64,000 bases of DNA from a phage, in the sequence record NC_104726.1; one strand, written 5' to 3'. A model generated the notes under the pieces. It ran no database searches, had not been told where the DNA came from, and saw only the letters and a program-made list of their open reading frames with translations. Positions 2,989 through 12,914 of this stretch are shown here, piece by piece. A program made the translations under genes and the position numbers. The number at the start of each line of letters is the position of its first letter. Position 1 is the stretch's first letter.

Positions 2989-3409
2989 TGCAAAAGCTTT
3001 TGGTGAGACAGCGGTACAAAGAGGCCAGGCTATGGGACTGGCACTACCTTTCGTCTTAAAAGAGCACTTTACAGATTTTCAACTTATCAAGGGTGATAAG
3101 GGAATTCTTATCCTGGAGCATAAGTTGAGTAAGAAACGCTATAAAGTTGTTTTTAATTCTAAAGCTCCAACAAAACTGGGATTCAGAACTTACAATCTTA
3201 ACCCATCCTACACTAAGGGTGTAGGAAGAGTAGAACAACAGCATTTCAGTGCCAGAGCTTCTTTAGCCCCTTTGATGCTAAATTTTTCAGGGGTGGCTTT
3301 AGGATACCTTGACAAGAAAAGAGTTCTTCATGTCCGTTTCACAGACTTTGTAACGCTTTTAGCTAACAATGAGGTAGATGAAAAGGGACGTGTAAAAACA
3401 AACTTCTAA
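2951..3409 (+). CDS. hypothetical protein
   Basis: Track ORF, co-oriented; no motif. Confidence 0.35.
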   Translation: MIKSIDLTKELTDAKAFGETAVQRGQAMGLALPFVLKEHFTDFQLIKGDKGILILEHKLSKKRYKVVFNSKAPTKLGFRTYNLNPSYTKGVGRVEQQHFSARASLAPLMLNFSGVALGYLDKKRVLHVRFTDFVTLLANNEVDEKGRVKTNF

Positions 3410-3436
3410 TAACGCATAGTATGATTGGAGACAGCA

Positions 3437-3628
3437 ATGACACTAAAGTTAACAGTTCCAGACAGCTTTTCAGAAAACTTTATCCCAGAAATGATGGATA
3501 AGATGCGATCATTGCTTGATCAGATTGAAGAGGCTGTTTGGGAAGACGATGCTGTAGTGGCTAACGAGCTGGTAGATAAGTGTAAAAGTATTATTGATGC
3601 AGTTGAAGAATACCACGGAGGTTTTTGA
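3437..3628 (+). CDS. hypothetical small acidic protein
   Basis: ATG at 3437 preceded by GGAGA; in frame with track ORF 3425..3628. Confidence 0.35.
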   Translation: MTLKLTVPDSFSENFIPEMMDKMRSLLDQIEEAVWEDDAVVANELVDKCKSIIDAVEEYHGGF

Positions 3629-4242
3629 TGGATATTATTGTTCTTAACGCCCCACCTAGTAGTGGTAAGGATCACATTGCAGATCTCTTGTTGGAAGCTA
3701 TTCCTAACTCACACCATCATGAGGTTAAGGAGATGCTCTTCAGCGTGGCAATTAAGGCAGCTGGTGTAACTCCTCAACTCTGGAATGCACTTTATGACCG
3801 CCACTACAAAGAAGAGCCTTGCCCTTTCTTAATGATAGACGGTAAGCATGTTTCTCCGCGAGAGTGGATGATCCATTGTAGTGAAAATCTGATTAAACCT
3901 ATCTTTGGTGAAGATGCTTTCGGTAAGGCCGCAGTCACATCCTTGAAGAAAGATTTCCCTAAAGGTAAAGGGGTTGTTGTTTACTCCGATGGTGGATTCA
4001 AAGAGGAGCTGGCATGCCTTAGTGAGTACGCATACAGCACAGGTGGAGATCTGTTGTTGTTCCGTATTCACCGTGTCGGATATGACTGGGGAAATGATTC
4101 CAGAACCTATCTAAGTCTGGAAAAGAACGGAATAAAAGGGATTGAGTTCGATGTTGTAAACCCTGAAGGTGCACCTTGGGAGTGTGCATCGGAGATTGTG
4201 TGCAAGTATATTGATGCTAAAGAGGCCCAAGAAGAATGTTAA
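3625..4242 (+). CDS. P-loop dNMP kinase-like protein
   Basis: N-terminal IIVLNAPPSSGKDHIADLL resembles the T4 gp1 dNMP kinase P-loop; GGAGG RBS. Confidence 0.5.
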   Translation: MMDIIVLNAPPSSGKDHIADLLLEAIPNSHHHEVKEMLFSVAIKAAGVTPQLWNALYDRHYKEEPCPFLMIDGKHVSPREWMIHCSENLIKPIFGEDAFGKAAVTSLKKDFPKGKGVVVYSDGGFKEELACLSEYAYSTGGDLLLFRIHRVGYDWGNDSRTYLSLEKNGIKGIEFDVVNPEGAPWECASEIVCKYIDAKEAQEEC

Positions 4243-4829
4243 TCGGAATTGATGTAGATTTGACACTGGTAGATTCAGGAACAGCATGGTGGGAGTGGTT
4301 GGAGCGTTTGTATGGTCCAGCCAGTAAGACAGTCGCTAAACCTTCTAATGGACTGATGTATTACGATCTGTCAAAGTATTGGCCTGATCGCCCCAAAGAA
4401 AACATCATAGGGCCTTTTGATTTCTGGAGTGACCCATTCCTCTACGACTTTCTTAAGCCTGAAGAGGGGGCTATTGAGGTTATGAAAGATTTGGTGGCTC
4501 GTGGTCACAAGCTTGCATTTATCTCGGTATGCAAGAAAGGTCACCTTGCATCTAAATCAAGGTTCTTAAAGCGTTGGACCAGTGATTTTATGGATCTGGA
4601 CGATCACACCCAGGGTCACGGCTTCTACGCCACACATTTCAAAGGAAATGTGGCTGTAGATGTTATAATTGACGACAGGCATGAATACCTCAACCAATTC
4701 GCTTCACGACCTGAAGTTATTAAAATCCTAAAAGATACGCCTTATGAGCAATTCGAGGAGTTAAAGGTCAGTATTGACTATACCGCCAATAGCTGGTATA
4801 AAATAGGAAAGTTTTTAGAAGGTATTTGA
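4236..4829 (+). CDS. HAD-superfamily 5'(3')-deoxyribonucleotidase-like protein
   Basis: HAD motif I IGIDVDLTLVD at N-terminus and DVIIDDRHEY near C-terminus; start overlaps upstream stop. Confidence 0.5.
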   Translation: MLIGIDVDLTLVDSGTAWWEWLERLYGPASKTVAKPSNGLMYYDLSKYWPDRPKENIIGPFDFWSDPFLYDFLKPEEGAIEVMKDLVARGHKLAFISVCKKGHLASKSRFLKRWTSDFMDLDDHTQGHGFYATHFKGNVAVDVIIDDRHEYLNQFASRPEVIKILKDTPYEQFEELKVSIDYTANSWYKIGKFLEGI

Positions 4830-10258: not shown

Positions 10259-10537
10259 ATGAGCTGCGAAAAATCTTTTTTCATCATCATTTACGGTAAG
10301 GATAACTGCCCACATTGTGTCAGAGCAAAAGAATTTGCAATCAGCAAAGGTCTGCCTTTTGTATATAAGACACTTGGCGAGGGCTACACAAAAGAAGAGC
10401 TTATTGAGAAGTGTAGTCCAATCGTCCCCCGAACGTTGCCGCAGATCTTCTTAGAAAGCGATCTTGACAGTATCCATATAGGCGGTGCCGACGATTTCAT
10501 CTCTTTTGTTAAGAATGGTTTTGGAGAGAAAAAGTGA
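10259..10537 (+). CDS. glutaredoxin (NrdH/NrdC-like redoxin)
   Basis: CPHC active site in a 92 aa thioredoxin-fold ORF between nrdB and nrdD. Confidence 0.75.
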   Translation: MSCEKSFFIIIYGKDNCPHCVRAKEFAISKGLPFVYKTLGEGYTKEELIEKCSPIVPRTLPQIFLESDLDSIHIGGADDFISFVKNGFGEKK

Positions 10538-11394
10538 AAGTTGTAAAACGGGACGGTAGAGAAGAGTTCTATAACGGAATTAAGGTGATCAAGGCGGCAG
10601 AGTCCGCCTTACTTGAGTCTGGACATACTGAAGAAGAAGCTTACCGGATCGCTTGTGCGGTTAATGAAGTTGTTGCTAACAATCTGCCAACCGACCAGTG
10701 CACGATCTCTGTAAAAAATATCCATATCCTTGTTGAAGATGCTCTTATGGATATGGGTTTAAAATGTGCAGCCAGAGAATACATCCAGTATAGACAGACA
10801 AGAGATAATAACAGAGAGGCAGGTGGAAAACTGCTTGCAGATATTAGTGGCTTCTTGGATCGAACTTGTGATGAATTTACAAAAGAAAACGCAAATAAGC
10901 CTACTAATCATGTACACACTCATCGCGACCTGCTTGCAGGTATTCTTAGCAAACACCTTGCATCAACACAGATCCTGCCAGACCGTGTCTCCGAAGAGCA
11001 CAATAAAGGCTTCATCCATGTGCATGATCTTGACTACTTGATCAGTCCGTTAACAAACTGTTGCTTGGTAAATTATCCAGATATGTTGGAAAACGGATTC
11101 AACATTGGTAACGCCCATGTCAGTAAGCCGAAGTCAATAGGGGTTGCAACAACAATCCTTAGCCAAATCTCTAGTGCGGTAGCTAGTGCTCAATATGGTG
11201 GTCAGACTATGAGCCATATTGATCATTATCTGGCACAGTATGCTGAAGCGACCTATGAGAAGAACCTTAAATTTTGCCAGGAACATTGGTTGCCAGATGC
11301 TGAAACTGTTGCAATGCAAATGACAGATAAAGACGTGTTTGACAGCATGCAGACGTTGCTTTATCAGATCAACACACTAACCTCGGTAAACGGT
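10534..11394 (+). CDS. nrdD: anaerobic ribonucleotide reductase, exon 1
   Basis: GTG start overlapping upstream stop; N-terminal ATP-cone-like region; frame closes at a stop inside the intron. Confidence 0.85.
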
Positions 11395-11684
11395 TAACAA
11401 ACTGGCCGTTTTAAAACTCTGCTAACCTTAGTATGAGGGGTCAGCTGATCGCTGGCTAACGGGGAACGCTAAGGCGAAAGCTATGCCAATCCCGTGACTA
11501 GCTTCACAAGGAGTGAGGCGGTTGTAACGACTAACCTTTTGGTGTAGGGATTATGGAAGATTCCGAAACGCAGGGGTCTGATTAAGAATCACACGGTGTG
11601 ATTTCAGGCAAGAGATAGTCTGGCCTTGTGGAAACATAAGGGTGGGGACCGCAAACCCCTTTTATCACATTAAGTTTAGGACTG
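11395..11684 (+). other. group I self-splicing intron in nrdD (no ORF)
   Basis: 290 nt between nrdD halves; P-, Q-, R-, S-like elements (AACGGGGAACGC, CAATCCCGTG, GTAACGACTAA, AAGAGATAGTCT) in order; P1 pairing 11388-11394 with 11405-11411 (U-G at splice site); ends in G at 11684. Confidence 0.8.
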
Positions 11685-12914
11685 GATACCTCGGTCTTTG
11701 GTAGAATGATTACCAAAAATTACTTGAAAGTCCACAAAATGGGTCTTGGTGAAGAACGGATCACACCTGTGTTCCCTAAAGTGCTGTTCTTCCTAGAAGA
11801 GGGTGTCAACATGAACCCTGAGGATCCTAACTATGATTTGAAACGATTAGCTCTGGAATGCTGTGCAGAACGTATCTACCCTGACTTCGTATCTGTACCA
11901 CTAAATAGAAAAGTGACAGGCTCGACAGATGGCAAAGTAACGAGCATGGGTTGCCGGAGTTTTCTTAGCAAATACAGTGACTTGGAAACAGGCGAGGAGA
12001 AATATCTTGGCAGATTTAACTTAGGCGTTGTTAGCCTTAACCTACCAATGATTGCGGCAAAAGCTAAGACGGAAGGTGTTGATTTCTTTGCAGTTCTTGA
12101 CGAATACTTGGATCTTGCATACGAGGCTCACCTTGTAAGGGTTAACCGTCTAAAAGGAACAAAGGCAGGGCAGAACCCCATCATGTGGTGTGAAGGAGCT
12201 CTTGCTCGCCTGGATCCTGAAGAGAGTATTGATAAACTCTTCTATGACGGGTACGCTTCCATCAGCATTGGGTATATTGGTGTGTATGAAACCTGTCAGA
12301 TTTTGGGTAGAGAGGGTGACAAGGCTTTAGCTCTTGGAATCCTTCAGCACATGAGAGATGCTTGTGAGCGATACAAGAAGGAAAGTAGACTAGCGTTTAG
12401 CTTGTACGGCACTCCTTCTGAGAGTCTATGCTATAAAGCTGCAACCTGTCTGGATCGTGAATATCCGGAAGTGTTGAAGCACGAGCATGAATATCTCACC
12501 AACAGTTTCCATCAGCCAGTATGGATCAATAGCTCTCCTTTTGATAAGTGGGAGTATGAGGAAGGTTTTGCTATGATCTCCTCCGGTGGCAACATCGGAT
12601 ACGTAGAGACACCTAACCTGAAAAACAACCTTGATGCTTTAGAGGCTCTTGTTGACTTCGGGTATAAACACATTATGTATTTTGGTATTAACCAACCTGT
12701 GGATAAATGTCTCAAGTGTGGTTTCTCTGGTGAGTTCAGTGCAACAGCTAAAGGGTTCTGCTGCCCTGCGTGCGGATGCCACGATGAACAATATATCTCA
12801 GTGATCCGAAGAGTGTCTGGATACCTTTCCAGTCCTAACTCCCGTCCTTACAATAAAGGTAAGCAAGCGGAAGTTATCGAGCGAGTTAAGCACTACGGAA
12901 GTTGTGGTTGCTGA
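11685..12914 (+). CDS. nrdD: anaerobic ribonucleotide reductase, exon 2
   Basis: In-frame continuation DTSVFGRMITKN...; C-terminal zinc ribbon CLKCG...CPACGC and glycyl-radical motif RVSGY. Confidence 0.85.
   Translation, partial: DTSVFGRMITKNYLKVHKMGLGEERITPVFPKVLFFLEEGVNMNPEDPNYDLKRLALECCAERIYPDFVSVPLNRKVTGSTDGKVTSMGCRSFLSKYSDLETGEEKYLGRFNLGVVSLNLPMIAAKAKTEGVDFFAVLDEYLDLAYEAHLVRVNRLKGTKAGQNPIMWCEGALARLDPEESIDKLFYDGYASISIGYIGVYETCQILGREGDKALALGILQHMRDACERYKKESRLAFSLYGTPSESLCYKAATCLDREYPEVLKHEHEYLTNSFHQPVWINSSPFDKWEYEEGFAMISSGGNIGYVETPNLKNNLDALEALVDFGYKHIMYFGINQPVDKCLKCGFSGEFSATAKGFCCPACGCHDEQYISVIRRVSGYLSSPNSRPYNKGKQAEVIERVKHYGSCGC

Follow-up and report, generated by a model that had tools for sequence, protein, structure and literature searches.

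A predicted ORF-less group I intron of 257 nucleotides in the nrdD gene of a Vequintavirus coliphage

Introduction

Group I introns have been known in phage ribonucleotide reductase genes since T4. The T4 nrdD (sunY) intron is 1033 nt long, combines a subgroup IA core lacking P2 with an in-frame stop codon near its start, and carries the ORF for the GIY-YIG enzyme I-TevII downstream of the core. Mobility can also depend on a separate gene, as in collaborative homing, where an ORF-less intron is accompanied by a neighbouring free-standing endonuclease that cuts its insertion site (PMC3984707). For the rV5-like phages, introns are mentioned in the rV5 genome paper for the terminase gene only. 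For the BASEL collection, the authors state that comparative genomics was used to place the intron boundaries (PMC8594841), and nrdD is annotated as a two-piece join in their phages HeinrichReichert (MZ501073), AlexBoehm (MZ501048) and RudolfGeigy (MZ501102).

The window analyzed here is the whole 64,000-nt stretch of phage DNA in sequence record NC_104726.1. The intron that interrupts its nrdD gene is 100% identical to the 257-nt intron of the three BASEL phages; it is thus already annotated in GenBank and is an unremarkable example of a familiar type of element. The BASEL records are silent on the class and structure of the RNA, and a literature search found no published description of the RNA of this intron. 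A second close relative is a 797-nt intron found at the same NG|Q site in other vequintaviruses, which shows about 86% identity across P1-P7 and J8/7-P9 and shares the same architecture, including two hairpins between P3 and P4. It differs by a 177-aa HNH_3 ORF in the P8 loop, by longer P7.1 and P7.2 helices and by compensatory changes in P1, P3, P9 and P9.0.

The T4 nrdD intron shares with the window intron the host gene, the conserved protein segment, the subgroup IA core, the in-frame stop near the start and the absence of P2; it differs in its length, its I-TevII ORF and its lack of hairpins between P3 and P4. A common insertion site was considered and rejected, as the T4 intron interrupts a Tyr codon 32 nt upstream (AYE-Y|EVNTLFSSNG), which corresponds to window 11362|11363. 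The two introns are not detectably of the same lineage.

Results and Discussion

The nrdD locus

The source phage is a Vequintavirus (rV5-like) coliphage, and its nrdD stretch is 99.6% identical to that of Escherichia phage HeinrichReichert. The gene order in the region from 6.8 to 14.8 kb is nrdA, nrdB, glutaredoxin, nrdD, a 386-aa ORF, a 41-aa ORF and nrdG. The nrdD reading frame runs through ...NTLTSVNG and then meets a TAA codon. The following features were assigned around this point:

10534-11394, + strand: nrdD exon 1, 287 codons, with the ATP-cone and the N-terminal part of the NRDD domain (ORF list and Pfam)
11395-11397, + strand: in-frame UAA, the first three bases of the intron
11395-11651, + strand: group I intron, ORF-less, subgroup IA-like, 257 nt (intron-less alleles, GenBank join product, RF00028 and covariation)
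11652-11684, + strand: exon segment formerly assigned to the intron, 33 nt, encoding QTPFITLSLGL
11652-12914, + strand: nrdD exon 2, starting CAA ACC CCT TTT (QTPF), with the glycyl-radical domain and including the stop codon
12981-14141, + strand: 386-aa ORF between nrdD and nrdG (Pfam)

The GTG start codon of nrdD at 10534 overlaps the stop codon of the glutaredoxin gene, and the same start is used in rV5 (ABI79178.1). With this start the protein has a full ATP-cone (Pfam, residues 1-91), which is lost in the BASEL records, where nrdD begins at an internal ATG equivalent to window position 10747.

Intron boundaries

The preliminary description of this locus had placed an intron of 290 nt at 11395-11684. 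Its 5' boundary was borne out, with exon 1 ending in U11394, while its 3' splice site proved to be 33 nt too far downstream. Excision of 11395-11651 yields a CDS of 2124 nt, which is the length of the uninterrupted nrdD gene of rV5. The encoded NrdD of 707 codons reads ...NTLTSVNG-QTPFITLSLGL... across the junction, i.e. ...TLTSVNG|QTPFITLSLGLDTSVFG..., and the QTPF of exon 2 extends the NG of exon 1 into a conserved NGQTPF motif. Translation of the exon 2 frame upstream of 11685 gives GWGP-QTPFITLSLGLDTSVFG. The Pfam NRDD profile is covered by positions 1-154 on the exon 1 piece and 179-562 on the piece from 11685, so that about 24 profile positions are missing if exon 2 begins at 11685. Alignment of the spliced protein to T4 NrdD (PDB 1h78) and to 9d3x, the former a comparison that had been proposed for the 290-nt insert, is gapless at the 257-nt junction and contradicts the downstream end.

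Intron-less alleles define the insertion site directly. The nrdD gene is uninterrupted in rV5, naam and O157 typing phage 14 (2124 nt in rV5 and typing phage 14), and a spliced query of 400 nt (200 nt on each side of the junction) matched the intron-less alleles of rV5, naam, JohannBauhin and others over 400/400 nt. The DNA at the site reads ...GTCAACGGG|CAAACTCC... in the intron-less allele and ...GTAAACGGT (TAAC...GACCG) CAAACCCC... in the intron-bearing allele, which gives the spliced junction GTAAACGGT|CAAACCCC. Because the bases at the boundaries differ (exon ...GGT, intron T...G, exon C...), the intron ends cannot slide. The ends of the 257-nt insert are identical in loci L001 and L002, and the insert is absent from rV5 and naam. 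Finally, the 636-aa product obtained with the BASEL start codon and the 257-nt splice equals GenBank QXV79969.1, QXV75731.1 and QXV84261.1, all identical. Since the BASEL join product is the product of the 257-nt splice, the exact intron and its boundaries are already public. By these sequence comparisons the predicted intron is 257 nt long, spans 11395-11651 and ends in G11651.

The longer insert has practically no probability of being the intron. There is indeed a G at 11684, and the ligation ...VNG|DTSVFG... that was proposed is in frame, as had been stated, but its product is not the correct one: QTPFITLSLGL (11 residues), which is kept in every intron-less allele and in T4 and 9d3x NrdD, would be deleted. 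The Pfam NRDD score is 532.8 bits (profile 1-562) with the 257-nt splice and 498.6 bits with the 290-nt splice, a loss of 34 bits. A search of about 15 billion proteins recovered the product of the 257-nt splice but not that of the 290-nt splice. The RF00028 match and P9 described below both stop at 11641, and P9.0 (CC 11649-50 with GG 11622-23) sets the omega-G at 11651. Homologs that align only upon translation of the insert had been named in advance as evidence against an intron; this was found for the terminal 33 nt of the 290-nt stretch, whereas no part of the 257-nt intron behaves in this way.

Ribozyme structure and covariation

A secondary structure of the 257-nt intron was built by hand and placed on the coordinates of the window:

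11388-11411, + strand: P1, AAACGGU (11388-94) with the guide GCCGUUU (11405-11), U11394.G11405 at the splice site
11417-22 (CUCUGC) with 11570-75 (GCAGGG), + strand: P3, in a pseudoknot with P7
11426-11455, + strand: two extra hairpins in the P3-P4 junction, provisionally named P3.1 (11426-29/11435-38) and P3.2 (11441-45/11451-55)
11459-11495, + strand: P4 (ACGGGG/UCCCGU, 11459-64/11490-95), P5, and P5a with a GAAA loop
11496-11523, + strand: P6 (GAC/GUU) and P6a (CUUCAC/GUGAGG)
11529-33 (GACUA) with 11616-20 (UAGUC), + strand: P7, the guanosine-binding helix, matching the RF00028 consensus AGACUA...AUAGUC
11534-43 and 11547-64, + strand: P7.1 (ACC/GGU) and P7.2 (GGGAUU/GAUUCC)
11576-11609, + strand: P8 (GUCUGA/UCAGGC) and its extension P8a
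11624-11641, + strand: P9, CCUUGUG-GAAA-CAUAAGG
11622-23 (GG) with 11649-50 (CC), + strand: P9.0, followed by the omega-G at 11651 (read from the sequence)

The P1 helix with its U.G pair at the splice site is the one already given in the preliminary description, and the P, Q, R and S-type elements claimed there were recovered as P4 and P7. The insert was also confirmed to be ORF-less: no + strand ORF of at least 40 aa lies within it, hence no homing endonuclease, and each of the three frames is riddled with stop codons. The position of the omega-G is fixed by comparison with the intron-less alleles, and P10 comprises only 2 base pairs in the window allele. The minimum free energy fold (z = -3.6) is better than that of all 200 shuffled sequences and recovers P1, both extra hairpins, P4-P5, P6a, P8a and P9.

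Relatives were drawn from IMG/VR with a P4-P5-P4' pattern taken from the window intron, and ten sequences were aligned (seven full-length ORF-less IMG/VR introns and three vequintavirus variants). Over 15 helices, 83% of the cells formed standard pairs, compared with 38-48% when the partners were slid by 1-3 columns; the derivation of the structure from one of the aligned sequences inflates this figure of paired cells, though not the count of double changes, and the seeding of the alignment with a pattern from the window intron favours the figure too. Changes on both sides were present in 33 of the 76 pairs, and the observed values were reached in 0/500 shuffles. P3 was paired in 100% of the cells with both-side changes in 4/6 pairs, P6 was likewise 100% paired with covariation in two of its three pairs, and P6a showed both-side changes in 5/6 pairs. 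P5a, P7.1, P7.2 and both extra hairpins covary as well, P7.1 and P7.2 each with both-side changes. P4 and P7 are invariant across the ten sequences and hence uninformative; for P4 this follows from its inclusion in the search pattern. P3 was also tried with GCUGGC as its 5' strand, which directly precedes J3/4-P4, the arrangement seen in T4 and Listeria phage LP-114; this placement was discarded, since that strand has no 3' partner and CUCUGC/GCAGGG covaries in the family.

The precisely restored frame, the intron-less sister alleles, the covarying core, the compensatory P1 and the significant though sub-threshold RF00028 match uphold the assignment to the group I class. The segment 11395-11651 is very probably a group I intron that lacks an ORF, of subgroup IA with a T4-td-like core in a Vequintavirus nrdD gene, for which splicing is predicted. 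We take the P4 and P6 sequences (ACGGGGAAC...CAAUCCCGUG) to resemble the T4 td type. Compared with the IA2 consensus, P2 is absent and two hairpins interrupt the P3-P4 junction. The placement in subgroup IA follows from the presence of P7.1 and P7.2, helices that are named criteria of this subgroup (PMC3984707).

These data also bear on the idea that there is no splicing and that NrdD consists of two polypeptides, of 287 aa and a C-terminal piece from ATG 11706, which assemble after translation. In many GenBank records nrdD is split into two distinct CDSs, the ORF at 11706-12914 does have an ATG start, and a precedent is reported for the Aeh1 NrdA protein split by mobE (PMC7344957). A start at 11706 would, however, drop 18 conserved residues (QTPFITLSLGLDTSVFGR), a conserved and covarying group I core would be left without a role, and both P1 and P9.0 show covariation that involves the exon and the intron ends. 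A split NrdD is therefore very improbable, and the excised 257-nt intron is retained as the reading.

Rfam score and the hairpins between P3 and P4

At the Rfam gathering threshold no match was obtained in the whole window, so the 257-nt intron is missed at this setting. The Rfam search suggested in the preliminary description gave a match in E-value mode only, where RF00028 matched 11385-11641 over the full model length (E = 9e-6 for 501 nt); the score of 29.8 bits stays below the gathering cut-off of 50. The T4 nrdD intron reached 105 bits in the same test. The RF00028 model lacks positions for P7.1/P7.2 and for the two hairpins in the P3-P4 junction; these two hairpins probably account for the sub-threshold score.

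The layout in the window is P3-AA-hairpin-GUGU-hairpin-GCUAA-P4. Two hairpins in this arrangement were present in 33 of the 68 distinct introns collected from viral metagenomes with the P4-P5 pattern, and also in Bacillus phage S4-2; the loci with this layout include L008, L010, L013, L014, L021, L025, L028, L029, L084 and L093. In a literature search for a name or description of these hairpins, only 'P3.1' was found, listed among the optional group I helices (PMC3873408). It is conceivable, albeit rather unlikely, that the intron belongs to a structurally distinct and widespread phage IA subfamily defined by the two covarying hairpins between P3 and P4 and by a hairpin that pairs the intron end with codons 2-3 of exon 2. 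If so, this subfamily would be under-annotated across phage genomes because its members fall below the Rfam gathering cut-off.

The pairing at the intron end was seen at window 11645-11659, across the 3' splice site, where the 3' tail of the intron can pair with exon 2 codons 2-3 (GGGG-ACCG|CAAA-CCCC). It is kept through both-side changes in three variants, the other two being the EmilHeitz 797-nt intron (GGAG-ACAG|CAGA-CUCC) and the intron of the IMG/VR contig L081 (GGCUG-G|CAG-CAGCC). Such a hairpin might serve to mask the 3' splice site or to present it.

Predicted splicing and mobility

A conventional two-step transesterification is inferred from the structure. The exon end AAACGGU would pair with the guide GCCGUUU to form P1, and an external guanosine bound in P7 would attack after U11394. 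The terminal G11651, placed by P9.0 and the weak P10, would then take the same site, and the exons would be ligated as GGU|CAA to give the 707-codon NrdD. The UAA at 11395-97 is expected to halt ribosomes on the unspliced RNA. As no endonuclease is encoded, the intron is presumably not mobile on its own, and the HNH enzyme of the 797-nt sister intron is an obvious candidate to mobilize the ORF-less form in a mixed infection.

Alleles among vequintaviruses

Of the 120 phage records matched by the nrdD stretch, nearly all are Vequintavirus. The 257-nt intron is found in 13/120 records at no less than 98.8% identity (nine at 99.6-100%, including seven at 100%, and four at 98.8%) and the 797-nt HNH form in about 31/120; the remaining records, which are the majority, have no match to the intron. 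The 797-nt form occurs in EmilHeitz, FV3, FFH2, slur16, isim and some 25 other vequintaviruses. In EmilHeitz the intron lies at 3362-4158 of locus L003, with the HNH_3 ORF inside the P8 loop. A homologous HNH intron is also found in L081, where it occupies this NG| site in a much more divergent nrdD gene and has fitting P1, P3 and P9.0 and in addition a P10 of 6 bp. The helices of these introns compare as follows:

P1: 257-nt intron AAACGGU/GCCGUUU; EmilHeitz CAACGGU/GCCGUUG (A-U to C-G, compensatory)
P3: 257-nt intron CUCUGC/GCAGGG; EmilHeitz CUCUCC/GGAGAG; L081 CUCUUC/GGAGAG
P9: 257-nt intron CCUUGUG/CAUAAGG; EmilHeitz CCCUGUG/CACAGGG (compensatory, GAAA loop in both)
P9.0: 257-nt intron GG/CC; EmilHeitz UG/CA; L081 CA/UG

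A simple deletion of the HNH ORF was considered as a possible origin of the ORF-less P8. When P8 of the window intron was compared with the HNH ORF, the computed alignment fell on the 3' end of the ORF in short blocks (83-100% identity over 2-18 nt), whereas by eye P8 resembles the start of the ORF.

Between -40 and +12 nt of the insertion site, the window nrdD gene differs from the intron-less alleles at 13 positions, all of them synonymous, against a background of about one difference per 60 nt. Two of these differences build P1: GGG to GGT supplies the splice-site U, and GTC to GTA provides the pairing partner of a guide U. Such a clustered synonymous flank is the signature expected of an intron imported by recombination together with exon sequence of the donor.

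The same adjustment of the exon, which keeps P1 intact, speaks against the intron being a decayed remnant that has lost both endonuclease and splicing, with nrdD a pseudogene in this lineage. The missing ORF, the weak P10 and the RF00028 score under the gathering cut-off would fit such decay. Moreover, nrdD is dispensable under aerobic laboratory growth, and a splicing-defective intron would therefore not be purged quickly. On the other hand, all core helices are intact, 13 records keep the intron at 98.8-100% identity, and both exons are open with only synonymous changes near the site. Decay is accordingly improbable, and an intact intron with predicted splicing remains the preferred reading.

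The three alleles (no intron, ORF-less intron, HNH intron) with their clear synonymous flank form a natural system for intron gain, endonuclease loss and co-conversion, and the coliphages that carry them are easy to grow. For annotation, the many vequintavirus records that list nrdD as two or three genes could be amended with the help of the structure and the corrected boundaries, 11395-11651.

The downstream 386-aa ORF

The ORF directly downstream of nrdD encodes four treble-clef or DUF723-type zinc-finger repeats and a C-terminal T5orf172/MUG113 domain of the GIY-YIG superfamily, and its product looks like a free-standing homing endonuclease. An ORF-less intron with such a nuclease-like gene next to its host gene resembles the arrangement of collaborative homing. 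Within the phage collection, the ORF was found elsewhere only in O157 typing phage 14 (KP869112, 99.4%), whose nrdD gene is intron-less with an ordinary junction and is identical around the site to the genes of nuclease-free phages. Collaborative homing with this ORF was rejected as a working model because the two elements are not co-inherited: typing phage 14 has the ORF without the intron, and HeinrichReichert, like the other BASEL phages, has the intron without the ORF. As each occurs without the other, the intron and the ORF look independent. The 3' end of the window nrdD gene is HeinrichReichert-like and the adjoining ORF is typing phage 14-like, which points to a recombination joint near the nrdD stop codon.

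Further observations

Some relatives have a second nrdD intron, located between Gly and Cys of MG|CRSFL (window equivalent 11951|11952); in L002, which is phage 241Ecol014PP, it spans about 3929-4677. The Cys at this site is presumably the catalytic cysteine. A similarly sized extra insertion is present in nrdD of A135, A147 and navn. The core of the L002 intron at MG|CRSFL shares about 80% identity with the T4 nrdD intron, from which it differs in its site and in having an HNH ORF in P6 rather than I-TevII; it scores 35 bits against RF00028. Its guide GCUCAUG is the same as in T4; the pairing partner of this guide is CAUGGGU here and UAUGAGU in T4. The element looks like a relocated T4-type intron whose new site offers a similar P1 target.

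About 19 records named 'Campylobacter phage' (MG0656xx; among them A135, A147 and C2) share 95-96% identity with E. coli vequintaviruses over nrdD; they carry the same introns and lack annotation. Their 'Campylobacter' host label looks doubtful.

On the opposite strand of the window, P8-P9 and the 3' splice site are covered by a 44-aa ORF with a TTG start codon (11582-11716, - strand), which has most probably arisen by chance.
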